Source: Escherichia coli
GTDB taxonomy: Bacteria; Pseudomonadota; Gammaproteobacteria; Enterobacterales; Enterobacteriaceae
Direction: 5' to 3' (one strand)
Length of the DNA: 64,000 nt
Assembly: GCF_030013205.1 (NCBI RefSeq)
Contig: NZ_CP122648.1
Shown here: positions 2,580 through 25,369 of the stretch, piece after piece
Numbering within the stretch: the stretch's first letter is position 1
How the letters are laid out: every line of letters starts with the position of its first letter
Notes under the pieces: generated by a model
The model's database searches: none
What the model was told of the DNA's origin: nothing
Seen by the model: the letters and a program-made list of their open reading frames with translations, nothing else
Program-made: the position numbers and the translations under genes

Positions 2580-3485
2580 CTATATTTCCAGACATCTGTT
2601 ATCACTTAACCCATTACAAGCCCGCTGCCGCAGATATTCCCGTGGCGAGCGATAACCCAGCGCACTATGCGGATGCCATTCGTTATAATGCTCGAACGCC
2701 TCTGCAAGGTTCTTTGCTGCCGTTAACCCGTCTGGTTTGGGCATGATACTGATGTAGTCACGCTTTATCGTTTTCACGAAGCTCTCTGCTATTCCGTTAC
2801 TCTCCGGACTCCGCACCGCCGTGTTCTTCGGTTCAAGTCCCAACATCCGGGCGAACTGGCGTGTTTCATTAGCCCGGTAGCATGAACCATTATCCGTCAG
2901 CCACTCCACTGGAGACGACGGAAGATCGTTGCCGAAGCGGCGTTCCACCGCTCCCAGCATGACGTCCTGTACTGTTTCACTGTTGAAGCCGCCGGTAGTC
3001 ACCGCCCAGTGCAGTGCCTCACGATCACAGCAGTCCAGCGCGAACGTGACACGCAGTCTCTCTCCGTTATCACAGCAGAACTCGAACCCGTCAGAGCACC
3101 ATCGCTGATTGCTTTCTTTCACGGCCACTCTGCCTGTATGTGCCCGTTTCGATGGCGGTACAGCAGGTTTTCGCTCAAGCAACAGCGCATTCTGGCGCAT
3201 GATCCGGTAAACACGTTTGGCATTGATCGCAGACATACCATCAAGTTCTGCCTGTCTGCGAAGCAGCGCCCATACCCGACGATAACCATACGTGGGCAGC
3301 TCTCCGATAACATGGTGTATACGGAGAAGCACATCCGTATCATCAGTGTGACGACTGCGGCGGCCATCCATCCAGTCATCGGTTCGTCTGAGAATGACGT
3401 GCAACTGCGCACGCGACACCCGGAGACAACGGCTGACTAAGCTTACTCCCCATCCCCGGGCAATAAGGGCGCGTGCGCTATCCAC
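2580..3485 (-). CDS. insD: IS2 transposase OrfB (InsD) frame, 301 aa; expressed as OrfAB fusion by -1 frameshift
   Basis: ORF track protein [30 protein letters not shown]... with DDE integrase-type core; recognised as IS2 InsD. Confidence 0.9.
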
Positions 3486-7932: not shown

Positions 7933-9486
7933 ATGCAAATGATTACCTCGCGACAAAACAGATTATTACGATTCCTTTTACCACGAAGGGAATATACGAC
8001 TATTGTTACGATTGCCGGCTATTTAAATGTTTCGGAAAAAACCATTCAACGTGATTTACGTTTACTTGAGCAATGGCTGGAACAATGGCGAATAACCGTT
8101 GAGAAGCGTGCTGGCGCAGGTGTGATGTTAGACTCGAAGAATATTACTGATTTGCTGCATCTTGATCATTTGTTGGGAGCAGAATGTGAAGAGATTGATG
8201 GTGTAATGAATAATGCCAGGCGCGTTAAAATAGCGTCGCAGTTATTAAGTGAAACACCGAATGAAACGTCGATCAGTAAATTGTCAGAGCGCTATTTTAT
8301 CAGTGGAGCCTCTATTGTTAATGACCTGAGAGTGATTGAGTCCTGGCTTGCGCCGTTGGGGTTATCATTGATCCGAAGCCCAAGTGGTACGCATATTGAA
8401 GGTAGTGAAGGGCAAGTCCGACAGGCAATGGCATTACTGATTAACGGCATTATTAACCATAATGAGCCGCAAGGTGTCGTGTATTCACGTCTGGATCCCG
8501 GAAGTTATAAAGCATTAGTCCATTATTTTGGAGAAGAAGAGGTGTTATTTGTCCAGTCATTGTTACTGGATATGGAAAATGAATTAAGTTGGTCTTTGGG
8601 AGAGCCTTATTACGTTAACATTTTTACTCACATCCTTATTATGATGTATCGCAACACGCACGGGAATGCGTTATCCAGAGAAGAAGATCAAACCAGGCAA
8701 TATGATGAAAATATCTTTAATGTTGCCAGTCAGATGATTCATAAGATAGAACAACGAATTGCACATACATTGCCCGATGATGAAGTCTGGTTTATTTATC
8801 AATATATCATTTCATCAGGTGTGGCGATTGATGGACAAAAAGATGTTAGCATTATTTCACATATGCAGGCCAGCAATGAAGCGCGTCTGATTACCTGGCG
8901 TTTAATTACGGTATTCAGTGACATCGTGGACTGCGATTTTAGTGAAGACAGCGCATTATATGATGGCTTGTTGGTTCATATTAAGCCGCTGATTAACCGA
9001 CTAAATTATCGCATTCATATCCGTAATCCATTGCTGGAAGATATTAAAGCAGAATTAGCGGATGTCTGGCGGTTGACGCAATATGTGGTGAATCAGGTAT
9101 TTAAAACCTGGGGTGAGAATGCAGTGAGCGAGGATGAAGTAGGTTACCTGACCGTTCATTTTCAGGCTGCGATGGAGCGGCAAATTGCCCGTAAACGTGT
9201 ATTACTGGTCTGTTCAACCGGAATCGGAACTTCGCATCTACTGAAAAGCCGTATTCTGCGAGCATTTCCTGAATGGACGATTGTTGATGTTATTTCAGCA
9301 GCGAATTTATCACAGGTTTTGCCTGACAATATCGAACTGATTATTTCGACCATTAATTTGCCTACAGTCACTATGCCGGTCGCTTATGTTACCGCTTTTT
9401 TTAATGATGCCGATATTAAGCGAGTCACTGAAATGGTGATTACGGAAAAATTACATCATGCGACATCTCGGGTCGTTGAAATTTAA
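7933..9486 (+). CDS. PRD-containing transcriptional activator (BglG/LicR/MtlR type) with N-terminal HTH and C-terminal PTS EIIB-like domain, 517 aa
   Basis: N-terminal winged-helix region (TIVTIAGYLNVSEKTIQRDLRLLEQ), central PRD-like regions, C-terminal LLVCSTGIGTSHLLKSRI (EIIB-Gat-like phosphorylatable Cys motif); heads a PTS operon. Confidence 0.7.
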   Translation: MQMITSRQNRLLRFLLPRREYTTIVTIAGYLNVSEKTIQRDLRLLEQWLEQWRITVEKRAGAGVMLDSKNITDLLHLDHLLGAECEEIDGVMNNARRVKIASQLLSETPNETSISKLSERYFISGASIVNDLRVIESWLAPLGLSLIRSPSGTHIEGSEGQVRQAMALLINGIINHNEPQGVVYSRLDPGSYKALVHYFGEEEVLFVQSLLLDMENELSWSLGEPYYVNIFTHILIMMYRNTHGNALSREEDQTRQYDENIFNVASQMIHKIEQRIAHTLPDDEVWFIYQYIISSGVAIDGQKDVSIISHMQASNEARLITWRLITVFSDIVDCDFSEDSALYDGLLVHIKPLINRLNYRIHIRNPLLEDIKAELADVWRLTQYVVNQVFKTWGENAVSEDEVGYLTVHFQAAMERQIARKRVLLVCSTGIGTSHLLKSRILRAFPEWTIVDVISAANLSQVLPDNIELIISTINLPTVTMPVAYVTAFFNDADIKRVTEMVITEKLHHATSRVVEI

Positions 9487-9512
9487 TGTCAGAATTTTAT
9501 GAGGTATGACGA

Positions 9513-9983
9513 ATGGACATAACAAAAATCCTGAATACGAATCGCGTTATTTTAGATATGCAAGCGACGAATAAAGCGGAGGCGATTGAAGAATTAACTA
9601 ATCTTCTCAAAAAAGATGGTGCGATCGATTGTCGGGAAACCTTTATTAAAGATGTCTGGCAGCGCGAAGCGGAAGGCTCGACTGGTTTTGAAAATCATAT
9701 TGCGATCCCGCATGGTAAATCTTCTGCGGTAATTAATACCACGCTGGCTATCGGGCGTACCCGGCAGGATATTCCCTGGGAAACACTGGATGGCAGTAGC
9801 GTACGCTGTATTATTTTATTTGCGGTACGTCTTGAAGATCAAAATACCACTCATATCCGTTTACTTTCCCAGGTCGCGGGCGCGCTTGCAGATGATGACA
9901 TCATAGCGCAATTGCTGGTTGAGACGAGCCCGCAAAAAATCATTGATCTCTTTAGTCAGTATGCACAATCCGATGTCTACTAA
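9513..9983 (+). CDS. PTS EIIA component, fructose/mannitol (type 2) family, 156 aa
   Basis: ...GFENHIAIPHGKSSAV... conserved phospho-His region of EIIA-2 domains. Confidence 0.75.
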   Translation: MDITKILNTNRVILDMQATNKAEAIEELTNLLKKDGAIDCRETFIKDVWQREAEGSTGFENHIAIPHGKSSAVINTTLAIGRTRQDIPWETLDGSSVRCIILFAVRLEDQNTTHIRLLSQVAGALADDDIIAQLLVETSPQKIIDLFSQYAQSDVY

Positions 9984-10000
9984 ATAACAGGGAGTATCTC

Positions 10001-10315
10001 ATGAATATTGTCTGTGTTGCCGCCTGCACGGCGGGTATTGCTCACACCTATATTGCTCGTGAAAAGTTAATTAAAGGGGCAAAAGCACTGGGCCACACCA
10101 TTAAAGTTGAAACCCAGGGAACCATTGGTACAGAAAACGAATTGCAGGCGGCAGAGATCTCTGCTGCTGACGTCGTGATTCTTGCTGTGGATGTGAAAAT
10201 AAAAGGAGAAGAACGTTTTACCAATAAACGCATTGTGCGAGTAAAGACAGAGATCGTCATTAAATCGCCCGTTCAATTTCTTGAAAAGGTCGAAAAATCA
10301 CTGGGAAATAAATGA
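10001..10315 (+). CDS. PTS EIIB component, fructose-like family, 104 aa
   Basis: MNIVCVAACTAGIAHTYIAREKL...: N-terminal CxxCxxGIAHT phospho-Cys motif typical of fructose-type EIIB. Confidence 0.75.
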   Translation: MNIVCVAACTAGIAHTYIAREKLIKGAKALGHTIKVETQGTIGTENELQAAEISAADVVILAVDVKIKGEERFTNKRIVRVKTEIVIKSPVQFLEKVEKSLGNK

Positions 10316-10339
10316 TCCTTATACTGGAGGGATCTTAAT

Positions 10340-11431
10340 ATGAAAGAAAATAAAATTCCGGTTTCACAGGAAATTAAAAAACATTTATTAACCGGCATCT
10401 CGTGGATGATACCCCTTATTGTGGCCGCCGGGATATGTATTGCGTTGGGGCAAGTTCTTGGCGGTACAGATGTTGGTGAAAAAACAGGAACAATCCCGTG
10501 GATGCTTAATCAGATTGGCGGCTGGGGAATGGGGCTGATTGTGCCGCTGATTAGCGCGGCAATTGCCTATTCTATTGCCGATCGTCCCGGATTTGCCCCG
10601 GGCCTGATTGTCGGCTTTCTCTGTGGGCAAATCCATACCGGATTTATTGGCGGTATGTTGGGTGGTTTCCTGGTGGGCTACACCATTTTGCTACTTAAAC
10701 GCTATATTCGCCTGCCGCAGTCGATGCAAGGACTCATGCCAATCATGGTGTTGCCGGTATTAAGCACCATTATCGGTGGGCTGTTAATGATGACGCTGAT
10801 TGGTAAACCCATCGCCTGGTTACAAGAAGCACTGATTCATTTGCTCGAGTCGATGCAGGGCGGATCGCGCTTCCTGATGGGGGCCATACTTGGCGCGATG
10901 GCAACCTTCGATTTCGGTGGTCCGGTCAACAAAACCATGTCGCTGTTTTCCGATGGCTTGCTGGTCAGTGGCGTCTACGGACCAGAAGCCGTGAAATTTG
11001 TCGGCTCAATCATCCCTCCGTTTGGCATCACACTTTCGTTCTTACTGACACGCCATAAATACACCCGTGCGGAGCGCGAGGCGCTGAAAGCCGCGTTTCC
11101 GATGGGGATCTGCATGATCACTGAAGGAGTCATTCCGATCGCCGCGCGTGACCTGTTGCGAGTAGTGGGATCTTGTGTGGTGGCATCGGCGGTCGCGGGC
11201 GGCTTAATCATGGTGTGGGGCGTGGAGAGTCCGGTTCCACATGGCGGCATGTTTGTTGTGCCTCTGTTCACCCATCCTCTGCTGTTTTGCCTGGCGCTGG
11301 GTATAGGCACGGTGATTTGTGGCGTGATGCTTTCACTCTGGAAGAAACCGGTAACGGAACGCGACGAAGAGTTTGACGAACTGAGCGATCAAAAGCTGAA
11401 AGATGAAGAGATCACTTTCACCCTCGAATAA
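10340..11431 (+). CDS. PTS EIIC permease component, fructose-like family, 363 aa
   Basis: Polytopic membrane protein immediately downstream of EIIA/EIIB; Gly-rich TM helices typical of EIIC-Fru. Confidence 0.7.
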   Translation: MKENKIPVSQEIKKHLLTGISWMIPLIVAAGICIALGQVLGGTDVGEKTGTIPWMLNQIGGWGMGLIVPLISAAIAYSIADRPGFAPGLIVGFLCGQIHTGFIGGMLGGFLVGYTILLLKRYIRLPQSMQGLMPIMVLPVLSTIIGGLLMMTLIGKPIAWLQEALIHLLESMQGGSRFLMGAILGAMATFDFGGPVNKTMSLFSDGLLVSGVYGPEAVKFVGSIIPPFGITLSFLLTRHKYTRAEREALKAAFPMGICMITEGVIPIAARDLLRVVGSCVVASAVAGGLIMVWGVESPVPHGGMFVVPLFTHPLLFCLALGIGTVICGVMLSLWKKPVTERDEEFDELSDQKLKDEEITFTLE

Positions 11432-11442
11432 CCGGAGGCCCT

Positions 11443-12294
11443 ATGTTTGCCGATATGAAAAGTATGGTGATGAAAGCCTGGCATGAACATTACGCCTTGC
11501 TGGCGATCAACTGTATGAATCTGGAAAGTGCTCGCGCAGCTATCCGCGTGGCGGAGAAGAATCGCGCTCCGATCATTCTCAATCTCTATCAGGGGCATCT
11601 GGCGCATTTTCCTGCACCCGTCGCGGCGGCAGTGGTTAAAACGCTCGCGGAATCTGCCTCAGTACCGGTCACTCTGGCGCTTGATCATGGCAAAAATCCG
11701 GACTGTATTCGTCAGGCGTTTCGTGCTGGTTTCAGCGGATTAATGATTGATGCTTCTGCTTTTCCCCTGGAGGAAAACGTGCGCCAGACCAAGGCGGTGG
11801 TGGAACTCGCCGCCAGCGCGCAGCTCTGCGTTGAAGGCGAACTGGGCCATCTGGCAGATGCGCCGCGTTACGACCAGGCCGCCAATGCAGACATGATGAC
11901 GCAACCCACTGATGTGGAAGCGTTTATCGCGCAGACAGGCATTGATCTACTGGCCGTCTCGGTAGGCACGGCGCACGGCATGTACGCGCCTGGTGTTGTA
12001 CCTGCTATTGATTTTCAGCGTCTGGCGGAGATTTTCCACTGCTCGAGCGTGCCTCTGGCATTACATGGTGGTAGCGGTACGCCGTTCGATCAGCTCCAGC
12101 TCTGTACGACTCTGGGGGTAGCAAAAATCAACGTGGGGGCGGCCATTTTTGAACGGGGGAAATCCGCGCTCCTGCATACCCTCTGTCACGATATATCCAT
12201 TGAACTGGTGGACGCGCTGAAAGCTATGGAACTGGCCTTCGAAGAAGCGATTACACCGTATTTACAGGCGAGCGGCTCTATCGGCAAAGCCTGA
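11443..12294 (+). CDS. Class II ketose-bisphosphate aldolase (GatY/KbaY/FbaA family), 283 aa
   Basis: Contains LDHG, GTAHG and HGGSG motifs of class II zinc aldolases. Confidence 0.75.
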   Translation: MFADMKSMVMKAWHEHYALLAINCMNLESARAAIRVAEKNRAPIILNLYQGHLAHFPAPVAAAVVKTLAESASVPVTLALDHGKNPDCIRQAFRAGFSGLMIDASAFPLEENVRQTKAVVELAASAQLCVEGELGHLADAPRYDQAANADMMTQPTDVEAFIAQTGIDLLAVSVGTAHGMYAPGVVPAIDFQRLAEIFHCSSVPLALHGGSGTPFDQLQLCTTLGVAKINVGAAIFERGKSALLHTLCHDISIELVDALKAMELAFEEAITPYLQASGSIGKA

Positions 12295-12374
12295 TTCATT
12301 TTCTGTCATGGCCTTTATGCCAGTGCAATAACGCACCGGCAGGGCGGACTACACGCTGAAACTGGAGATTTAAC

Positions 12375-13235
12375 ATGTTAGTTTCGATGAAAGAATTACT
12401 GCAACCTACCCGCCAGCACGGCTTTGCCATTGGCGCATTTAATGTGGCGGATAACTGTTTCCTTCGCGCAGTCGTGGATGAAGCAGAAGCGACAAATACT
12501 CCGGCGATTATTGCCATCCATCCCAGCGAACATGATTTTGTGGGCGATGCCTTTTTCGCTCACGTTCGCGAAATTACCCAGCGTAGTCCGGTCCCGTTTG
12601 TACTGCACCTCGATCATGGTGCCTCTGTAGAGCATGTTTTGCGTGCGATTCGCTGCGGATTTACCTCAGTAATGATCGACGGTTCGCTGCTGCCGTATGA
12701 AGAAAACGTGGCGCTGACCGCAGAAGTGGTTCGCCTCGCTCACGCGGTTGGAGTGTCGGTTGAGGGTGAACTGGGAACCATCGGACAAACAGGAACGTCG
12801 GTAGAAGGTGGTGTTTCACAAGTGACCTACACAGATCCGGCGCAGGCCGCCGATTTTATTGCTCGTACAGGTGCCGACACTCTGGCTGTGGCGATTGGTA
12901 CAGCGCATGGCATCTATCCAAAAGGGATGCAGCCGAAGCTGCAAATGGACATTTTGCGCGACATTGCCGGACGTATTGATATTCCGCTGGTGCTACACGG
13001 TGGTTCGGCAAACCCGGACGCGGAGATTGCTGAATCAGTTACGCTCGGCGTCGGCAAAATCAATATCTCCAGCGATATGAAATACGCCTATTTCCAGAAA
13101 GTGCGTGAAATTCTCGCTAAAGAGAGCTGGTGGGACCCGAACGTCATCTATCCGGATGCGATTAACGCGGCGCGGGAAGTCATTCGCCACAAAATGAAAC
13201 TGTTCGGTTCGCTCGGTAAAGCATCACTGTACTAA
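12375..13235 (+). CDS. Class II ketose-bisphosphate aldolase paralogue (GatY/KbaY family), 286 aa
   Basis: LHLDHG, GELG, GTAHG, LHGGS motifs; second tandem paralogue. Confidence 0.75.
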   Translation: MLVSMKELLQPTRQHGFAIGAFNVADNCFLRAVVDEAEATNTPAIIAIHPSEHDFVGDAFFAHVREITQRSPVPFVLHLDHGASVEHVLRAIRCGFTSVMIDGSLLPYEENVALTAEVVRLAHAVGVSVEGELGTIGQTGTSVEGGVSQVTYTDPAQAADFIARTGADTLAVAIGTAHGIYPKGMQPKLQMDILRDIAGRIDIPLVLHGGSANPDAEIAESVTLGVGKINISSDMKYAYFQKVREILAKESWWDPNVIYPDAINAAREVIRHKMKLFGSLGKASLY

Positions 13236-13240
13236 GCCAG

Positions 13241-13264
13241 AAGGGCGGGGTGACCCGCCTTTTA
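13241..13264 (+). terminator. GC-rich hairpin plus T-run between aldolase 2 and the kinase (possible intra-operon attenuator or partial terminator)
   Basis: GGGCGGG-GTGA-CCCGCCT followed by TTTT, 6 bp after the aldolase stop. Confidence 0.4.
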
Positions 13265-13282
13265 CGCAACAAGGAACGAGAT

Positions 13283-14215
13283 ATGCACTATCTGGGGTTG
13301 GATATTGGTGGGACCAAAATCGCCGCCGTCGTCATGGATGCGCATGGCTGGGAGATTCGCCGTTACCGCTGCCCGACGCAAAAGTCGACATATCAACAAT
13401 TTGTCTCATGCGTTGTGGCGTTTATCGAGCAGATTAGGCGGGACGTTCAACGACCGATGCTGACAGGGATCGCCTTACCCGGCAGTATCTCGCCACTCAC
13501 TGGCCTGATTAAAAACGCGAATATTCAGGTGATTAACGGTCATGCGTTACAGGCTGATTTGCAGCAATTGCTTGGGCAACCGGTGGTGATAGCCAATGAT
13601 GGTAACTGTTTCGCGCTATCAGAAGCTTGCGACGGTGCCGGGCAAGATTATGACGTGGTATTTGGTATTACGCTTGGTACGGGCTGCGGCGGTGGCATTG
13701 CCATCAAGCAACGACCGTTTATAGGGGCCTGGGGAAATGCTGCCGAATGCGGTCATATCACGTTGCCAGGCTATACGGAGCAGGAAGATGGTCCATCAGT
13801 CAGTTGCTATTGCGGCAAACACAACTGCGTGGAGTCGTTTGTTTCCGGCAGCGGTTTTAGTGAACGCTATCAACAGATGACTGGTAACTTGCTCACTCCT
13901 GCGGCGATTGTCACCCTGGCACAACGTGGTGATGCTTGTGCCATGCAGCAGGTGGCACGTTTTCGCCAACAGCTTGCCCGCACGCTGGCAACCATCGTTA
14001 ACGTTGTTGACCCTGGCGTGATTGTGATCGGCGGCGGGCTTTCGAATGTGGAACTGCTTATCACCGCTCTGAACGCAGAAGTTGCTCCACTGGTTTTCAC
14101 CGATCAATTCACCACTCCCATTGTAAAAGCACAGCACGGCGACAGTAGCGGAATGCGTGGCGCTGCCTGGCTTGCTATGCGCAACGGAGAAGCCAATGAA
14201 ACGTTCACAAATTAA
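13283..14215 (+). CDS. ROK-family sugar kinase, ~310 aa
   Basis: MHYLGLDIGGTKIAAV... N-terminal ATP motif and CYCGKHNCVESF zinc-binding ROK signature; start moved to the ATG with AAGGAA Shine-Dalgarno rather than the upstream GTG of the track ORF. Confidence 0.75.
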   Translation: MHYLGLDIGGTKIAAVVMDAHGWEIRRYRCPTQKSTYQQFVSCVVAFIEQIRRDVQRPMLTGIALPGSISPLTGLIKNANIQVINGHALQADLQQLLGQPVVIANDGNCFALSEACDGAGQDYDVVFGITLGTGCGGGIAIKQRPFIGAWGNAAECGHITLPGYTEQEDGPSVSCYCGKHNCVESFVSGSGFSERYQQMTGNLLTPAAIVTLAQRGDACAMQQVARFRQQLARTLATIVNVVDPGVIVIGGGLSNVELLITALNAEVAPLVFTDQFTTPIVKAQHGDSSGMRGAAWLAMRNGEANETFTN

Positions 14216-14876
14216 TTATGTTATTGATAAAGCACATGCCATTGCGCAGACCTTCCGCGTTTGTTTGCCAGAGTTCGCCTATTTTACGGTGGATGACTGG
14301 CTGCAGCTGGAACGGGATAACTGGCAAGAAGTGGTCGACTTACAGCTCGGTTGGGATATCACCGATTTTGGTCGTGGTGATTTCAACCAAACGGGACTAA
14401 CACTGCTAACGATGCGCAACGGCGCGCTGGGGTCGGCGGCATATCCAAAACCGTATGCTGAGAAAATGTTGCAGATCCAACAAGATCAGCAGACTCCTTG
14501 GCATTTTCACACCCACAAAATGGAAGATATCCTCAATCGGGGCGGTGGAGACTTATGCATGCAGTTGGCCTGGGCCAACGAAGCCAATCTCTGTGATGAT
14601 CAACGAGTCATTACCGTGAGTGTTGATGGTCAGCGGCGTACCATGAAACCTGGTGAAACGCTGGTGCTAAAGCCGGGGCAGGGCATTTGCCTGCCGCCGC
14701 GTCTGTATCATCGCTTCTGGGCGGAAAAAGCGTTTGTTCTCGGCTGGGAAATTTCGATGGTAAATGATGACCAACATGATAACCATTTTCTTGAGCCGGG
14801 AGGACGTTTTCCGGCGATAGAAGAAGATGAACCGGTGAAATGGTTATTGTGTAGTGAGTATGCTGTTTTGCGGTAA
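14196..14876 (+). CDS. Cupin-fold sugar isomerase, D-lyxose/D-mannose isomerase-like, ~226 aa
   Basis: Size and His-rich segment (WHFHTHKMEDI) resemble cupin-type D-lyxose isomerases; start taken at the ATG preceded by GGAGA; overlaps the kinase stop. Family assignment is from memory. Confidence 0.5.
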   Translation: MKRSQINYVIDKAHAIAQTFRVCLPEFAYFTVDDWLQLERDNWQEVVDLQLGWDITDFGRGDFNQTGLTLLTMRNGALGSAAYPKPYAEKMLQIQQDQQTPWHFHTHKMEDILNRGGGDLCMQLAWANEANLCDDQRVITVSVDGQRRTMKPGETLVLKPGQGICLPPRLYHRFWAEKAFVLGWEISMVNDDQHDNHFLEPGGRFPAIEEDEPVKWLLCSEYAVLR

Positions 14877-18418: not shown

Positions 18419-19624
18419 ATGTTTCATCTCGATACTTTAGCAACGCTTGTTGCCGCAACGCTGACGTTGCTGCTCGGGCGTAAGTTGGTCCATTCCGTCT
18501 CCTTTTTGAAGAAATACACCATACCGGAACCTGTTGCGGGTGGTTTGTTGGTGGCGCTGGCGCTACTGGTACTGAAAAAAAGCATGGGCTGGGAAGTCAA
18601 CTTTGATATGTCCCTGCGCGATCCGTTAATGCTGGCTTTCTTCGCCACCATTGGCCTGAACGCCAACATTGCCAGTTTGCGTGCCGGTGGGCGTGTGGTT
18701 GGCATCTTCTTGATTGTGGTTGTTGGTCTGTTGGTGATGCAAAATGCCATTGGCATTGGTATGGCTAGCCTGTTAGGGCTTGATCCGCTGATGGGGCTGT
18801 TGGCCGGTTCTATTACGCTTTCCGGCGGTCACGGTACGGGCGCTGCGTGGAGTAAATTGTTCATTGAACGCTATGGCTTCACCAATGCGACGGAAGTGGC
18901 GATGGCCTGTGCGACGTTTGGTCTGGTGCTGGGCGGCTTGATTGGCGGTCCGGTAGCGCGCTATCTGGTGAAACACTCCACCACGCCGAACGGTATTCCG
19001 GATGACCAGGAAGTCCCGACGGCGTTCGAAAAGCCGGATGTGGGCCGCATGATCACCTCGCTGGTGCTGATTGAAACTATCGCGCTGATTGCTATCTGCC
19101 TGACGGTGGGGAAAATTGTTGCGCAACTTTTGGCTGGCACTGCTTTTGAACTGCCGACCTTCGTCTGTGTACTGTTTGTTGGCGTGATTCTGAGCAACGG
19201 TCTGTCAATGATGGGCTTTTACCGCGTCTTTGAGCGTGCGGTATCCGTGCTGGGTAACGTAAGCCTGTCGTTGTTCCTGGCGATGGCGCTGATGGGGCTG
19301 AAACTGTGGGAGCTGGCTTCGCTGGCGCTGCCGATGCTGGCGATTCTGGTGGTACAGACCATCTTCATGGCGTTGTATGCCATCTTCGTTACCTGGCGCA
19401 TGATGGGCAAAAACTACGATGCGGCGGTGCTGGCTGCGGGTCATTGTGGTTTTGGCCTCGGTGCAACGCCAACGGCAATCGCCAACATGCAGGCGATCAC
19501 TGAACGTTTTGGCCCGTCGCACATGGCGTTCCTGGTAGTGCCGATGGTCGGTGCGTTCTTTATTGATATCGTTAACGCGCTGGTGATTAAGCTGTATTTG
19601 ATGTTGCCGATTTTTGCCGGTTAA
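18419..19624 (+). CDS. gltS: Sodium/glutamate symporter GltS, 401 aa
   Basis: MFHLDTLATLVAATLTLLLGRKLVHSVSFLKKYTIPEPVAGG...; 401 aa. Confidence 0.92.
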   Translation: MFHLDTLATLVAATLTLLLGRKLVHSVSFLKKYTIPEPVAGGLLVALALLVLKKSMGWEVNFDMSLRDPLMLAFFATIGLNANIASLRAGGRVVGIFLIVVVGLLVMQNAIGIGMASLLGLDPLMGLLAGSITLSGGHGTGAAWSKLFIERYGFTNATEVAMACATFGLVLGGLIGGPVARYLVKHSTTPNGIPDDQEVPTAFEKPDVGRMITSLVLIETIALIAICLTVGKIVAQLLAGTAFELPTFVCVLFVGVILSNGLSMMGFYRVFERAVSVLGNVSLSLFLAMALMGLKLWELASLALPMLAILVVQTIFMALYAIFVTWRMMGKNYDAAVLAAGHCGFGLGATPTAIANMQAITERFGPSHMAFLVVPMVGAFFIDIVNALVIKLYLMLPIFAG

Positions 19625-19626
19625 AA

Positions 19627-20493
19627 ATGAAAAAGCGTCGGAAGGAACCGGAAACGCTACGTGAACACTGTCGCCATATTTTTGGTGACGAGCCGCCAGT
19701 GCTCTGTGTATGGGAAACGGAATTTGATTACGCAGATGCCGAACTCAAGGCGCTGGCGGCTAAAGAGTGGCAACAGATAGGCGAATGGGATTTGAGTGCT
19801 TACTATGTACTCAATCTCGTTTATAACGAACCGATGCAAATAGAGCTGTTTCGCTATCTGTTTCCGCTATGCCTGGCGCAATGGCATGAAACCGTTTTAG
19901 CTGGCGGTTATGGTGATCACTTCGAAGAATCCTTAATGAAGGCATTGCGTCGGCCCTATCTCTGGCAGGAGATGATGAATGCTTCCCAACGCCAGCAGGT
20001 ACGGCAATTTTTACTGGAAACCGCGTTGCAGCGTATGGATAACGAGCGTGGTTTCAATAATGTTCTTTGCTGGCTGGCGGTGTTCAATACTCTGGGCGGG
20101 GCCGCGCCGTTAATTCATTCTCTCTGGTCAAGCTGGTGGGTGCTGGATACGCCGGGAAAAGCGGTGTGTGCTATTCAGTATGCCGCGCATCTAATTTATC
20201 CCATAGAAGCCAATCCGTTATGGTCGCAAGAATGGTTAGGCTGGGGGCATCCATTAGGTCATAAAGATGGCTGGTCCTCTGAGAATCGCGCTTTTCTTCG
20301 CCAAATGTTAACACCTGAAATGATTGTGGCTGGCGTACAGGCAGCGGCTGAAATTCTGCGTGGTGAACCGGAAGGCGCAATGGCGGCGCGAATTGCGCAG
20401 GATGCGTATGAGGCAGTGGATATCATCACTATCCAGATTGAAGATTTACTGCGTGACTTGTCTTGTGATGAGTCTGGTCATGCGTTGGAGTAG
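19627..20493 (+). CDS. Hypothetical protein, 288 aa, no recognisable domain
   Basis: ATG 3 nt after the gltS stop; C-terminus overlaps the recG stop by 16 bp; E. coli-like codon usage; Trp-rich, no predicted TM segments. Confidence 0.6.
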   Translation: MKKRRKEPETLREHCRHIFGDEPPVLCVWETEFDYADAELKALAAKEWQQIGEWDLSAYYVLNLVYNEPMQIELFRYLFPLCLAQWHETVLAGGYGDHFEESLMKALRRPYLWQEMMNASQRQQVRQFLLETALQRMDNERGFNNVLCWLAVFNTLGGAAPLIHSLWSSWWVLDTPGKAVCAIQYAAHLIYPIEANPLWSQEWLGWGHPLGHKDGWSSENRAFLRQMLTPEMIVAGVQAAAEILRGEPEGAMAARIAQDAYEAVDIITIQIEDLLRDLSCDESGHALE

Positions 20494-22559
20494 CGTTCTG
20501 TTTCTGGCATCCAGCGTTCTATCAGGGCTTTTGCCTGTTGTGGGTAACGTTCGTGAATATGTCGCGCCAGGCGCTGAACTTCCGGGATCATCGCCTGGTC
20601 GCGCAGTAAATCCGCCACTTTAAACTCAGCATTACCCGTCTGACGCGTACCTAACAGTTCACCCGGTCCGCGAATCTCTAAGTCTTTCTGTGCAATCACA
20701 AAACCGTCGTTGCTGTCGCGCAGCACTTGCAGCCGAATTTGCGCGGTTTTGGAGAGCGGCGTTTTGTAGAGCAGCACGCAGTGAGAAGCCACCGCACCAC
20801 GACCTACACGCCCGCGAAGCTGGTGTAACTGCGCCAGACCCAGACGCTCAGGGTTTTCGATAATCATCAGACTGGCGTTAGGCACATCAACACCGACTTC
20901 AATAACGGTAGTGGCAACCAGCAGGTGTAGTTCACCTTGTTTAAACGACGCCATCACCGCCTGTTTCTCGGCAGGTTTCATCCGCCCGTGTACCAGGCCG
21001 ACGTTCAGTTCCGGCAACGCCAGTTTCAACTCTTCCCAGGTAGCTTCCGCCGCCTGCGCTTCCAGTAACTCTGACTCTTCAATCAACGTACAAACCCAGT
21101 ACGCCTGACAACCTCCAGTCATGCAGGCGTGGCGCACGCGGTCAATGATGTCGGTACGGCGAGTATCAGGAATAGCGACCGTAGTCACTGGCGTGCGGCC
21201 TGGCGGCAGTTCATCAATGACCGAGGTGTCGAGATCAGCATACGCAGTCATCGCCAGCGTGCGGGGGATCGGCGTGGCGGTCATGATCAACTGATGCGGA
21301 TGGAAGCCTTGCTGCTGGCCTTTCTCCCACAATGCCAGACGCTGATGCACGCCAAAGCGATGCTGTTCGTCGATAATCACCAGCGCCAGGCCGTTAAACT
21401 GCACCTGTTCCTGGAAGATGGCGTGTGTTCCGACAATCATCTGCACCTGACCGCTGGCGATGGCTTCCTGCTGTGCCAGCCGCGCTTTACCTTTCTGCTT
21501 ACCGGCGAGCCAGCCCACTTCGATACCGAGCGGTGCAAACCAGTTACGGAAGTTATTGGCGTGCTGTTCGGCGAGTAATTCGGTTGGTGCCATCAATGCC
21601 ACCTGTTTGCCGTGGGCAATCGCACGCAGCGCGGCGAGGGCAGCGACCAGCGTTTTACCGGAACCTACATCGCCCTGTACCAGGCGCATCATCGGCGCAT
21701 CCAGCGCCATATCGCGCTCGATCTCCGCCACCACGCGTGCCTGTGCGCCCGTTGGCTTGAACGGTAAGGCTGCGAGGAGTTTATTTTTCAGCGCGTCATT
21801 GGCGCTAAGCGGCTGGGCATGGAAACGTTGTGCACCAGCGCGTAACGCCAACATGCTGAGGTTGTGCGCAAGCAGTTCTTCCAGAATCAGACGGCGTTGT
21901 GCTGGATGCTGCCCGGTTTCGAGATCGCTAAGCTGTAGCGTCGGCGGCGGGCGGTGCAAAGTGCGCAACGCTTCCGGTAGCGTCATCATTCCTTGTGACA
22001 GTTCCGGCGGCAGGAGTTCTTCAATGGCGCAGGTGTCGAGCAGATCCAGCGCCTGATCGGTTAATTTACGCAGCGTGGCCTGCTTTACGCCTTCCGTAGT
22101 TGGGTAAACCGGCGTGAGCGTTTCCTGTAATTCTGGCGTGCTGAGATCGCCCTGCACGCGGTATTCCGGGTGGATCATCTCCGCACCATATTTACCGCGC
22201 TTTGCTTCGCCATAAGCCAGTACACGGCGGCCCGTCGCCAGGCTATTTTTCATTGCCGCGCTGAAATTGAAAAAGCGCATGGTGAGAATGCCGGAACCGT
22301 CGCTGATCTGGCAGGTCATCATCCGCCGACCGCCGAAGGAGATATTGCAGTTCAGCACTTCGCCTTCCACCGTGGCATAAACACCCGGCAGTAGTTCTCC
22401 GATGGGGTAGAGATGGGTGCGATCTTCGTAGCGCAGGGGAAGGTGTAAGAGTAGATCCTGCACGGTATGCAGGTTGATTTTCGCCAGTTTGTTACTAAGT
22501 GCTGCGCCAACGCCCGTTAGGGAACTGAGTGGGACAGCATCTAACAGGCGACCTTTCAT
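20478..22559 (-). CDS. recG: ATP-dependent DNA helicase RecG, 693 aa
   Basis: MKGRLLDAVPLSSLTGVGAALSNKLAKINLHTVQDLL... with Walker A GDVGSGKT and DEQH box; start at the internal Met of the track ORF. Confidence 0.95.
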   Translation of the reverse strand: MKGRLLDAVPLSSLTGVGAALSNKLAKINLHTVQDLLLHLPLRYEDRTHLYPIGELLPGVYATVEGEVLNCNISFGGRRMMTCQISDGSGILTMRFFNFSAAMKNSLATGRRVLAYGEAKRGKYGAEMIHPEYRVQGDLSTPELQETLTPVYPTTEGVKQATLRKLTDQALDLLDTCAIEELLPPELSQGMMTLPEALRTLHRPPPTLQLSDLETGQHPAQRRLILEELLAHNLSMLALRAGAQRFHAQPLSANDALKNKLLAALPFKPTGAQARVVAEIERDMALDAPMMRLVQGDVGSGKTLVAALAALRAIAHGKQVALMAPTELLAEQHANNFRNWFAPLGIEVGWLAGKQKGKARLAQQEAIASGQVQMIVGTHAIFQEQVQFNGLALVIIDEQHRFGVHQRLALWEKGQQQGFHPHQLIMTATPIPRTLAMTAYADLDTSVIDELPPGRTPVTTVAIPDTRRTDIIDRVRHACMTGGCQAYWVCTLIEESELLEAQAAEATWEELKLALPELNVGLVHGRMKPAEKQAVMASFKQGELHLLVATTVIEVGVDVPNASLMIIENPERLGLAQLHQLRGRVGRGAVASHCVLLYKTPLSKTAQIRLQVLRDSNDGFVIAQKDLEIRGPGELLGTRQTGNAEFKVADLLRDQAMIPEVQRLARHIHERYPQQAKALIERWMPETERYSNA

Positions 22560-22564
22560 GGCAC

Positions 22565-23254
22565 TTACCCTGCAGCCTGCATAGTAGCCCACCAGTCGGC
22601 ATCAGCTTCGATCTCGCCTTGCTGATTGACGTGGGGATAAGGCAGGCCTTTGCGTTTTGCGACTTTCGCCAGCACCGGATAGCCGCCTTCAAACAACAGG
22701 CGTTGTTGCTCTGCTTCCGGCAACATGCTGTTTTCACGCAGGTACATGCCTGCATTTTGCCGCTGACGCTGGGCTTCGTAAAGAATGAGGGCTGAGGCAA
22801 CGGAAACATTCAGCGACTGCACCATGCCGATCATCGGAATGATGATGTCCTGATCCGCCAGGGCCAATGCTTCCTGCGTGATGCCCGTTTTCTCCTGTCC
22901 CATCAAAATGCAGGTCGGGCGAGTGTAATCAATTTCGCGGAAATCGACAGCGTTATCAGAAAGATGGGTTGCCAGAATCTGCATGCCCTGGCCTTTCAGA
23001 TGAGCGACGGCATCGCCAATGGTGCGGTGCGTTTTCACCTGTACCCAGCTGTTACTACCCGCAGCTGCCGAAGCCATGGTGCGCATCCGGCTACCAGGCC
23101 AGACAGCATGAACTTCATGTACACCAACAGCATCTGCGGTACGAATAATCGCAGAAACGTTATGAGGTTTGTGGACCTGCTCCATGCAGACGGTCAGATC
23201 AGGCTGCCGCCTGGCGAGCATTTCGCAGATACGTGCATAACGTGTTGGGTTCAT
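22565..23254 (-). CDS. trmH: tRNA (guanosine18-2'-O)-methyltransferase TrmH (SpoU), 229 aa
   Basis: MNPTRYARICEMLARRQPDLTVCMEQVHKPHNVSAIIRTADAVGV... Confidence 0.92.
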   Translation of the reverse strand: MNPTRYARICEMLARRQPDLTVCMEQVHKPHNVSAIIRTADAVGVHEVHAVWPGSRMRTMASAAAGSNSWVQVKTHRTIGDAVAHLKGQGMQILATHLSDNAVDFREIDYTRPTCILMGQEKTGITQEALALADQDIIIPMIGMVQSLNVSVASALILYEAQRQRQNAGMYLRENSMLPEAEQQRLLFEGGYPVLAKVAKRKGLPYPHVNQQGEIEADADWWATMQAAG

Positions 23255-23260
23255 AAAACA

Positions 23261-25369
23261 TTAATTTCGGTTTCGGGTGACTTTAATCACGTCTGGCATC
23301 ACGCGGATTTTGCGCATGATATTCGCCAGATGCACACGGTCACGGGCGGTCAGACGAATAAAGGCGCTGTAGACGCGACCATCTTTCTCTTCCGTATTCA
23401 AACTTTGAATATTCGAGGTGGTGGTGTTAATTGCCGCTGTCAGGTTTGCCAGCGCGCCCTGATGATTGAACATCTCCACCTTGATTTCGGTGATGAACTC
23501 CTGCGCCGTCTCTTTATCCCATTCCACAGCCATAAACTTCTCTGGCTCTTTCTGGTAGCCACGGATGTTACGGCAGGATTCATGGTGGATCACCAGACCT
23601 TTACCGGGGCTGACGTGGGCGATAATCGGGTCGCCAGGAATAGGGCGGCAGCATTTCGCAAAGGTGATCAGCACGCCATCGGCACCTTTAATGGGCAGAT
23701 GTCCGTGACTTTGGGTTGCCGGTGGAATGGAGGCGTCCCCATGTTGCAGATTTTTCGCGACCACCACGCTCATTGCGTTACCAAGGCCGATTTCAGCCAG
23801 CAGATCGTCAAGCGTTGCCAGCTTCATGCGGTCCAGCTCGCGCTGAATATTTTCCTGCGGGATTTCATTCAGCTTACGGCTACCACCCAACGCATGGTTG
23901 AGCAGACGACGGCCCAGGCTTACAGAATCATCACGCTTGAGGTTTTTCAGCAACTGACGAATTTTGGCGCGCGCTTTCGAGCTAACGACAAAGTTCAGCC
24001 ACGCGGCATTCGGGCGAGCGCCCGGTGCGGTAATGATTTCAACGGTTTGACCGCTAGTAAGCGGCTGCGACAGCGGGTAAGGCTGGCGGTCAACGCGTGC
24101 GCCCACGCAGGCATGACCGATATCGGTATGCACTGCATAAGCGAAGTCGACGGGCGTTGCACCGGCAGGCAGCTCGACAATTCGCCCTTCCGGTGTGAAA
24201 ACGTAAATCTCATCCGGGAAGAGATCGGATTTAACGCTCTCGATAAATTCAAACGAGCTACCGGCGCTCTGTTGCAGCTCCAGCAGGCTTTGCATCCAGC
24301 GCTGGGCGCGGATTTGTGCGGTAGTACTGGTTTCGCCGTGCTCTTTATAAGCCCAGTGCGCGGCAACACCCATCTCCGCCATCTGATCCATATCTTCGGT
24401 ACGGATCTGGACCTCAACCGGCACGCCGTGCGGGCCAATCATCGAGGTGTGCAAAGACTGATAGCCGTTCGCTTTTGGAATGGCGATATAGTCTTTCACG
24501 CGGCCCGGACGCGGCTTGTACAGGCTATGCATTTGCCCGAGCACGCGATAACAGGTGTCGGAATCATTGACGATCACGCGGAAAGCGTAGATGTCCATGA
24601 TTGAGTGAAAACGCTGCTCTTTGAGCACCATTTTGCAGTAAATCGAATAAAGATGCTTTTCGCGACCACTGACGCGGCACGGTATTCCCGCTTCCTGCAA
24701 ACGCCCTTCGATTTCAGAAAGAATCTTCTGGATCATCTCTTTACGGTTGCCGCGCGCGGCTTTCACCACTTCTTTGATTACGCGATAACGGTTGGGATAC
24801 AGCGCCTCAAAACCCAGCTCTTCGAGTTCGGTTTTAATGTGGTGGATACCTAAACGGTGCGCCAGCGGGCTGTAAATTTCGAGTGTTTCACGGGCGATGC
24901 GGCGACGTTTGTCCGGGCGAAGTGAGCCCAGCGTGCGCATGTTGTGGGTACGGTCGGCAAGTTTGATGAGAATGACGCGGATATCCTGCACCATCGCCAT
25001 AATCATCTTGCGAAAGTTTTCGGCCTGCGCCTCTTTCTTATCGCGGAACTTGAGTTTATCAAGTTTCGACACCCCCTCTACCAGCTCGGCGACGCTTTTA
25101 CCAAAAAGCTGTTCCATGTCCTGGTAGGTGGCGGGAGTATCTTCAATCACGTCATGCAGCAGCGCCGCCATAAGCGTTTCATAGTCGAGTTTCATCTCGG
25201 CCAGAATGCAGGCAACCGCCACCGGGTGCGTGATATAGGGTTCACCGCTTGAACGTGTTTGCCCCTCGTGAGCATCACGTGCAACGAGATACGCCTGCCG
25301 CAGACGCTTGATTTGGTCTTCCGGCAGGTAGGTTTGAATCAGTTGATTCAGGCTTTCAAACAGATACAA
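23261..25369 (-). CDS. spoT: Bifunctional (p)ppGpp synthetase/hydrolase SpoT, 702 aa
   Basis: MYLFESLNQLIQTYLPEDQIKRLRQAYLVARDAHEGQTRSSGEPYITHPV... HD and synthetase domains. Confidence 0.95.
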   Translation of the reverse strand: MYLFESLNQLIQTYLPEDQIKRLRQAYLVARDAHEGQTRSSGEPYITHPVAVACILAEMKLDYETLMAALLHDVIEDTPATYQDMEQLFGKSVAELVEGVSKLDKLKFRDKKEAQAENFRKMIMAMVQDIRVILIKLADRTHNMRTLGSLRPDKRRRIARETLEIYSPLAHRLGIHHIKTELEELGFEALYPNRYRVIKEVVKAARGNRKEMIQKILSEIEGRLQEAGIPCRVSGREKHLYSIYCKMVLKEQRFHSIMDIYAFRVIVNDSDTCYRVLGQMHSLYKPRPGRVKDYIAIPKANGYQSLHTSMIGPHGVPVEVQIRTEDMDQMAEMGVAAHWAYKEHGETSTTAQIRAQRWMQSLLELQQSAGSSFEFIESVKSDLFPDEIYVFTPEGRIVELPAGATPVDFAYAVHTDIGHACVGARVDRQPYPLSQPLTSGQTVEIITAPGARPNAAWLNFVVSSKARAKIRQLLKNLKRDDSVSLGRRLLNHALGGSRKLNEIPQENIQRELDRMKLATLDDLLAEIGLGNAMSVVVAKNLQHGDASIPPATQSHGHLPIKGADGVLITFAKCCRPIPGDPIIAHVSPGKGLVIHHESCRNIRGYQKEPEKFMAVEWDKETAQEFITEIKVEMFNHQGALANLTAAINTTTSNIQSLNTEEKDGRVYSAFIRLTARDRVHLANIMRKIRVMPDVIKVTRNRN

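Follow-up and report, generated by a model that had tools for sequence, protein, structure and literature searches.

Pnkp and Hen1 carry out the healing, sealing and 2'-O-methylation of ribotoxin-cut RNA (PMC4411300, PMC3675462), and RlaP extends the 3'-OH of damaged RNA by 1–2 nucleotides (PMC12776372). R2K ATP-grasp families, in turn, have been linked to ADP-ribosylglycohydrolases (ARH) and conflict systems (PMC4431377). Here, we describe Ybl159, the 288-residue product of an open reading frame (ORF) packed between gltS and recG in a 64,000-nucleotide stretch of Escherichia coli DNA (contig NZ_CP122648.1, assembly GCF_030013205.1; hereafter, the window), together with the protein family to which it belongs. 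Eight diverged homologues of Ybl159 are encoded inside Pnkp–Hen1 (and Pnkp1–Rnl–Hen1) operons with RlaP (PF10127). The family is not described as an operon component in PMC12776372 or PMC4411300, and an earlier mention in comparative surveys is possible.

Homologues of Ybl159 lie inside RNA-repair operons

Eight loci, all belonging to a Planctomycete-dominated clade of the family, place a Ybl159 homologue (denoted X in the gene orders below) among RNA-repair genes: L020, L023, L024, L025, L040, L045, L051 and L058. Specifically, X sits between Hen1 (TIGR04074, 729 bits) and Pnkp (TIGR04075, 1419 bits) in L025, and L045 and L051 have the order Hen1–X(–Pnkp). The order is RlaP–X–Pnkp in L024 and RlaP–RlaP–X, followed by an N-terminal remnant of Pnkp, in L023. 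The Ca. Kuenenia locus L020 reads X–RlaP–RlaP–ARH, and the longest arrangement, in L040/L064, reads Hen1 C-terminal remnant–X–RlaP–R2K ATP-grasp–RlaP–Pnkp. In L058, an independently chosen representative, X precedes an RNA ligase gene (PF09414), accompanied by two convergent RlaP genes. In several of these loci, X and a neighbouring RlaP, Hen1 or Pnkp gene overlap by 4 to 14 nt at their start and stop codons. Two further loci, L048 and L052, carry a macro (DarG-like) and NADAR fusion gene directly 5' of X (L052 1531–2655; L048 1664–2530), which overlaps the mechanically called start of X.

The repair-linked X proteins are 45–65% identical to one another, except for the pair from L023 and L024, which share 85% identity and come from the same metagenome-assembled genome (MAG). 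Their gene orders vary, and a neighbour-joining tree scatters them through the clade. The low mutual identity, varied gene orders and tree positions together imply that the linkage to RNA repair has been held over a long divergence. It is found in 8 of the ~24 informative non-enteric contexts, a share that we judge to be far above chance because, to our knowledge, repair genes of the Hen1/Pnkp/RlaP type are rare in any genome. Two of the flanking genes are remnants, consisting of the last 30 residues of Hen1 beside X in L040 (5871–5960) and Pnkp residues 13–47 in L023 (4657–4755), which indicates that some Planctomycete RNA-repair operons are being broken up. The R2K-clade ATP-grasp gene (PF14243/PF18299) found between two RlaP paralogues (L064 2366–3136, equivalent to L040 7873–8664) makes a combination within an RNA-repair operon that is not described in PMC4431377.

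E. coli Ybl159 aligns with the operon-embedded X proteins over its whole length, with phmmer E-values of 1e-44 to 1e-55 and 31–38% identity. The enzymes that travel with X are chemically diverse, comprising a nucleotidyltransferase, a kinase–phosphatase–ligase, a methyltransferase, a ligase and ADP-ribose-removing enzymes. What these partners would have in common is not a fold but the substrate on which they act, namely broken or modified RNA ends such as those of ribotoxin-cleaved tRNA, and recognition or presentation of that substrate is therefore the most likely role for Ybl159. On this homology and gene order, we tentatively propose that E. coli Ybl159 has a non-catalytic part in an RNA-end damage response, as a binding factor or an adaptor, a reading that we hold as possible rather than probable. 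Ybl159 would recognise the substrate, or a particle carrying it, or present either to the end-processing enzymes. In E. coli, where the operon partners are not nearby, it may act alone or with enzymes encoded elsewhere, for instance RtcB/RtcA. Such a factor could work without a fixed partner, which would explain why most members of the family, that of E. coli included, stand alone. The broader notion suggested by the gene orders, that the family constitutes an unrecognised non-enzymatic core component of bacterial RNA-end repair/anti-ribotoxin systems and would be the 'missing' recognition/adaptor subunit of Hen1–RlaP–Pnkp operons, is doubtful.

Ybl159 represents an acidic, all-helical protein family

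Ybl159 contains 13 Trp among 288 residues (4.5%) and begins with the basic stretch MKKRRK, two features that the initial annotation of this DNA, made from the sequence alone, had already picked out; its net charge is -17. The AlphaFold2 (AF2) model is confident, with a mean predicted local distance difference test score (pLDDT) of 89 and a predicted template modelling score (pTM) of 0.88, and consists entirely of helices, 15 in number. Composition and predicted structure thus show Ybl159 to be an acidic, Trp-rich, single-domain all-α protein. The protein may also bear a faint resemblance to helical-repeat (solenoid) proteins; the HEAT, ARM and TPR models of Pfam gave no match, even at E ≤ 10 for Ybl159.

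A profile search defines a family of 442 clusters at 50% identity, nearly all of them stand-alone proteins of ~280–330 amino acids, and its tree separates a proteobacterial clade from the Planctomycete clade. All 56 sampled members are acidic, with a mean net charge of -14 and a median isoelectric point of 4.96. Eleven positions are near-invariant across these 56 diverse proteins from both clades (F33, D34, Y60, Q71, P80, W86, W170, G177, A179, W216 and N220), and they fall largely in the conserved blocks listed in Table 1. The most distinctive of these, the signature at residues 71–86, lies mostly within the predicted helix H72–92; its P80 is invariant, and Q71 and W86 are nearly so. The alignment of the 56 members contains no conserved His or acidic cluster suggesting a metal or hydrolase site.

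The initial annotation could not place the protein in any known family, and database searches agree. Pfam gave no match for Ybl159 or the 56 sampled members, NCBIfam none for the E. coli protein and ten other members, the PADLOC anti-phage defence families and PHROGs none for Ybl159, and the PDB none by sequence or by profile. A fold search, which that annotation had suggested alongside structure prediction, was equally self-contained: besides the family, Foldseek against AFDB50 returned a small number of uncharacterised proteins, of which one carries the label 'DUF1822 family protein'. DUF1822 has been called a TPR protein (PMC8195603). This single Foldseek match to an AFDB entry so labelled is the sole link between Ybl159 and DUF1822, and the Pfam DUF1822 model (PF08852) matches neither Ybl159 nor any of the 56 members. 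A full-text literature search by the gene name 'ybl159' or by WP_000747329 returned nothing relevant. The ORF is already catalogued as a hypothetical protein and hence is not new in itself. What appears to be new is a family without a model or literature, a K-12 deletion allele that forms part of a three-allele polymorphism, and a recurrent extra gene in Hen1/RlaP/Pnkp operons.

Genomic contexts without repair genes and alternative functions

Several observations weigh against a role for E. coli Ybl159 in the RNA-end damage response. A tblastn search of the 64-kb window found no homologue of RlaP, Pnkp, Hen1 or ARH, and none of the sampled members of the proteobacterial clade (E. coli, other enterics, Leminorella, Cupriavidus and Zoogloeaceae) adjoins an RNA-repair gene. 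Of the informative non-enteric contexts, roughly two thirds are a mixture of housekeeping genes, transposases and islands of small unknown genes. The identity of the E. coli protein to operon-embedded members is low, and an acidic surface is unusual for a direct RNA binder.

The proteobacterial contexts differ from one genus to the next. The Leminorella gene lies between gapA and yeaD. In a Zoogloeaceae MAG, the gene follows ssb and a retropepsin-like protease gene, with a 4-bp overlap with the latter and secA also nearby. In Cupriavidus and a related metagenome group, it lies amid small unknown genes and transposases; two of the Cupriavidus-type neighbours are probably DUF6714 proteins, as suggested by a Pfam scan of 27 pooled neighbour proteins that yields counts per family, most of its matches carrying no locus assignment. 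Planctomycete-clade members outside repair operons are found beside housekeeping genes or transposases, or in an island of small unknown genes that includes three tandem HEAT_2 proteins and a Schlafen AlbA_2 protein.

These contexts would suit a proteobacterial role unrelated to RNA repair, in which Ybl159 is a generic helical scaffold serving some other cytoplasmic role, dispensable enough for frequent loss. The proteobacterial clade branches apart from the Planctomycete clade and shows no link to RNA repair in our sample, its members have housekeeping neighbours (gltS/recG in enterics, gapA/yeaD in Leminorella, ssb/secA in Zoogloeaceae), and selection on the E. coli gene is relaxed relative to the flanking genes. 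Even so, we consider a wholly separate role rather unlikely. The near-invariant residues are common to both clades over the full length of the protein, which argues for one conserved molecular function, and the E. coli protein is strongly homologous to the operon-embedded members, with phmmer E-values near 1e-44.

The acidic character of the family and some of its neighbours bring a second alternative into view, that of an immunity-like inhibitor. Ybl159, an acidic protein acting by itself, would then bind and neutralise a basic toxin directed at nucleic acids, either a ribotoxin or an ADP-ribosyltransferase that modifies them; in repair operons it would provide a first-line defence beside the damage-reversal enzymes, and elsewhere it would be an orphan immunity gene. 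The distribution of the family is patchy and rare, with 15 matches among one-genome-per-species contigs for the patterns used, the gene is variably present in E. coli, and it evolves several-fold faster than its flanks. The whole family is acidic and always single-domain, some members are found within islands or arrays of uncharacterised small genes together with HEAT_2 proteins, Schlafen AlbA_2 proteins and transposases, and the neighbours ARH, macro–NADAR and R2K ATP-grasp belong to families tied to conflict systems (PMC4431377). However, no recognisable toxin gene or polymorphic-toxin architecture adjoins the gene in ~25 informative loci searched with NCBIfam, Pfam and PADLOC, several neighbours being unidentifiable. 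No Pfam immunity family matches Ybl159 or the 56 members, and PADLOC gave no match for Ybl159. The gene is not found on phages or true plasmids, the enteric copies are held at one housekeeping locus by descent and not in a variable island, and chemically diverse partners suit a shared substrate better than a single cognate toxin. We regard an immunity function as unlikely.

The gene at the gltS–recG junction is real, and its absence from K-12 is a deletion

We are nearly certain that Ybl159 is encoded by a genuine gene of ancestral origin that K-12 has lost. As first annotated, an intact ORF of 288 codons is packed between gltS and recG, with a 16-bp overlap with the latter. RefSeq carries it as a coding sequence (CDS) for a 'hypothetical protein' in O157:H7 and BL21(DE3), the common E. 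coli allele being WP_000747329.1, and UniProt/AFDB entries name the protein 'Ybl159'. The RefSeq locus tags are out of series, so the gene entered RefSeq upon re-annotation. The window allele differs from the common allele by 2.4%, and the ratio of nonsynonymous to synonymous substitution rates (dN/dS) between these two E. coli alleles is 0.25 for the ORF, versus 0 for gltS and 0.04 for recG, which indicates that the ORF is under purifying selection. Full-length homologues are found down to 29% identity, and the frame is kept across genera at 49–66% identity, which sets the ORF apart from a non-coding remnant. A chance ORF was rejected on the basis of these distant homologues, the dN/dS value and the confident AF2 model.

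The G+C content of the ORF (50.2%) equals the window mean, whereas its G+C content at third codon positions (GC3) is 0.495, compared with 0.62–0.65 in gltS and recG. With this GC3, the codon bias is weak, which is a caveat to the codon usage initially described as E. coli-like. The accompanying argument against a recent foreign origin is reasonable. No copy of the gene occurs in IMG/VR viral contigs or GenBank phages, and the three 'plasmid' records that contain it look chromosomal, one of them including recG and the others measuring 4.8 Mb and 1.0 Mb. A mobile-element origin was rejected on these grounds.

Among 5426 complete E. coli genomes, 1917 carry the ORF, 1911 of them at no less than 95% identity over at least 80% of its length, and it is annotated as a CDS, never as a pseudogene, in all sampled rows. 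A search spanning the junction resolved three alleles. The ORF allele has a junction span of 1667–1669 bp. The K-12-type allele (span ~981–989 bp) has a 168-bp spacer in 1869 genomes, and the minimal allele (span 847–849 bp), which accounts for most remaining genomes, retains a single ~48-bp GC-rich hairpin between both stop codons. The gene is thus lineage-variable, as had been surmised from the window, and K-12 MG1655 indeed lacks it, recG and gltS being separated there by the 168-bp spacer with hairpins and a segment resembling repetitive extragenic palindromic (REP) elements. In sequence, the K-12 spacer resembles a minimal allele into which a further segment, REP-like by eye, has been inserted. 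Both ORF-less alleles start directly after the gltS stop with ATGAAGCGGCGG, which resembles the ORF start ATGAAAAAGCGTCGG, a likeness suggestive of a remnant of the ORF start. On the other side of the junction, the last ~12 recG codons (20478–20520) encode the same peptide, WMPETERYSNA, in ORF-bearing and ORF-less alleles (L002, L063) and differ at many synonymous sites, placing a haplotype break inside the recG 3' end.

The gene also lies beside recG in two Superficieibacter species, Intestinirhabdus alba, 'Enterobacter sp. kpr-6' and several enteric metagenome contigs. It is therefore ancestral there, and the K-12 arrangement is a deletion, not the ancestral state. The choice between insertion and K-12 deletion left by the initial annotation thereby resolves in favour of deletion, with the possible ORF-start remnant on the same side; a recent insertion was rejected, as the gene adjoins recG in diverged enteric genera. 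The Ybl159 proteins of these other enterics are 49–66% identical to that of E. coli, compared with 92–94% for RecG and 90–95% for TrmH in the same genomes. On gene order and identity, these comparisons show that several enteric genera share an ancestor that already carried the gene at the recG 3' end, and that deletion has since removed it from K-12 and from about two in three complete E. coli genomes. Judged by these identities and alleles, it evolves several-fold faster than its neighbours and is lost repeatedly. Neither a K-12 copy of the ORF nor a match to a well-characterised family came to light.

Such losses could mean that the gene is a decaying relic, its frame still open in E. coli, its function dispensable and the whole heading for loss. 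E. coli has two independent ORF-less alleles, the GC3 is low, dN/dS exceeds that of the neighbours, and the out-of-series locus tags point to RefSeq entry upon re-annotation alone. Against decay stand the 1911 genomes with a closely similar, near-complete copy that was a CDS and not a pseudogene wherever sampled, a dN/dS of 0.25 that denotes purifying selection, and a frame kept across diverged genera. A relic is, in our judgement, improbable.

The junction itself is tight on both sides, with a spacer of 2 nt between the gltS stop (ending at 19624) and the ORF ATG (19627). Scans of the junctions between gltS, the ORF and recG found no sigma-70-like promoter site and no more terminator-like matches than expected by chance, and in the ORF-bearing allele no terminator hairpin separates the ORF and recG. 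Because neither a promoter-like nor a convincing terminator-like site separates the pair, the suggested co-transcription of the ORF with gltS is plausible, and translational coupling is possible. The gltS link itself is not a conserved one: at three enteric loci (L011/L012, L015 and L016), the gene adjoins recG and gltS is absent. Rfam gave no match at the locus, and an RNA element was rejected on this result and on the missing promoter-like site.

The tightness of the junctions raises one more candidate, a locus-specific accessory that modulates GltS through translational coupling, or RecG through the convergent overlap or antisense effects. In addition to the lack of promoter-like or convincing terminator-like signals, stop/start contact with gltS recurs in L006, where a homologue 49% identical to Ybl159 overlaps gltS by 1 nt, and the 16-bp recG overlap is also present in O157:H7 and in L011/L012/L015. 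Nevertheless, a gltS-specific or recG-specific accessory was rejected and is very improbable, as loci without those neighbours contradict it: the enteric loci without gltS keep the gene, and neither neighbour is present in Leminorella, Cupriavidus, Zoogloeaceae or any Planctomycete-clade locus. Furthermore, the two thirds of E. coli genomes that do not carry the gene keep an identical GltS protein.

Features of the locus and of the surrounding window

Table 1. Ybl159, its conserved blocks and its flanks in the window
Feature	Position	Strand	Basis
Ybl159 CDS, 288 aa, ATG start	19627..20493	+	ORF call, RefSeq CDS annotation, homologues, dN/dS, AF2 model
N-terminal motif VWExEFD, aa 28–34; F33 and D34 nearly invariant (56 members)	19708..19728	+	Alignments
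Signature Q-x-(D/E)-L-F-x-Y-L-F-P-x-C-L-x-x-W, aa 71–86	19837..19884	+	Alignments, AF2 model
Conserved block W167..W170-W171..G177-x-A179	20125..20163	+	Alignments
Conserved block W216..N220, start of helix H218–227	20272..20286	+	Alignments, AF2 model
gltS stop/ORF start, reads TAA-AA-ATG	19622..19629	+	Sequence and signal scan
Convergent overlap of ORF 3' end with recG stop codon region, 16 bp	20478..20493	.	Sequence
gltS, sodium/glutamate symporter, upstream flank	18419..19624	+	ORF call, annotation
recG, 693 aa as annotated, convergent downstream flank	20478..22559	-	ORF call, annotation

The mechanically called recG ORF begins at a GTG located 11 codons 5' of the annotated 693-residue start and overlaps the end of trmH (22560–22592, minus strand). 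The annotated start (MKGRLL...) agrees with the RefSeq RecG length, and O157:H7 differs by one substitution, K2T, near the start. Farther downstream, a 546-residue ORF on the plus strand (22964–24604) runs antisense to trmH and spoT and is most likely a by-product of opposite-strand codon composition, not a gene.

Upstream of gltS, a ~7-kb sugar-utilisation block (7933–14876) separates yicI and yicH. It contains genes for a BglG/PRD-type regulator, a fructose-like phosphotransferase system (PTS) EIIC component, two class II ketose-bisphosphate aldolases, a ROK fructokinase-like kinase and a D-lyxose/D-mannose isomerase. The yicH–yicI gap of K-12 measures just 52 bp, which makes this block a second strain-variable insertion or deletion near the Ybl159 gene. 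The tRNA-Sec gene selC lies at 2205–2299 on the minus strand, and an IS2 transposase gene (TnpB, 724 bits) at 2580–3485, between selC and yicJ; this IS2 insertion adjoins selC, a classic integration hotspot.

Implications and comparison with described systems

About one complete E. coli genome in three, BL21(DE3) and O157:H7 among them, carries an intact Ybl159 gene, yet K-12 does not. Its link to Hen1, Pnkp and RlaP provides the first testable lead on its function and hints at a fifth, hitherto undescribed gene in RNA-repair operons of a class for which the activity of RlaP was reported only in late 2025. If the family is indeed a core component of RNA-end repair, the strains that carry the gene (E. 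coli B, O157:H7 and many commensals) would differ from K-12, which lacks it, in the tolerance of tRNA/rRNA-cleaving toxins or in RtcB-dependent repair. If the repair link is wrong, there is still a housekeeping junction at which E. coli has twice lost a gene that is ancestral in enterics.

Three groups of described systems invite comparison. Like Ybl159, the Imm/SUKH families and colicin immunity proteins are acidic, single-domain, sporadic and fast-evolving, and sometimes occur in arrays of small unknown genes. Unlike toxin–immunity pairs, the Ybl159 loci examined have no adjoining cognate toxin, and in enterics the gene occupies a stable housekeeping locus. Archease, in contrast to the 288-residue all-α Ybl159, is a small α/β protein, and the two have no relationship in sequence or fold. 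The likeness lies in the role: an Archease-type RNA-ligase accessory factor (PMC3973293) is a small non-ligase protein whose gene sometimes shares an operon with RNA-repair enzymes and sometimes stands alone, and a role of this kind is the one proposed for Ybl159. The third group, the Pnkp–Hen1 systems, houses the diverged homologues themselves. Unlike the genes of Pnkp–Hen1 operons, E. coli Ybl159 lies outside such an operon, and its product has no recognisable catalytic domain. Pnkp–Hen1 systems nonetheless offer a precedent for extra subunits that are neither kinase nor methylase (PMC4411300).

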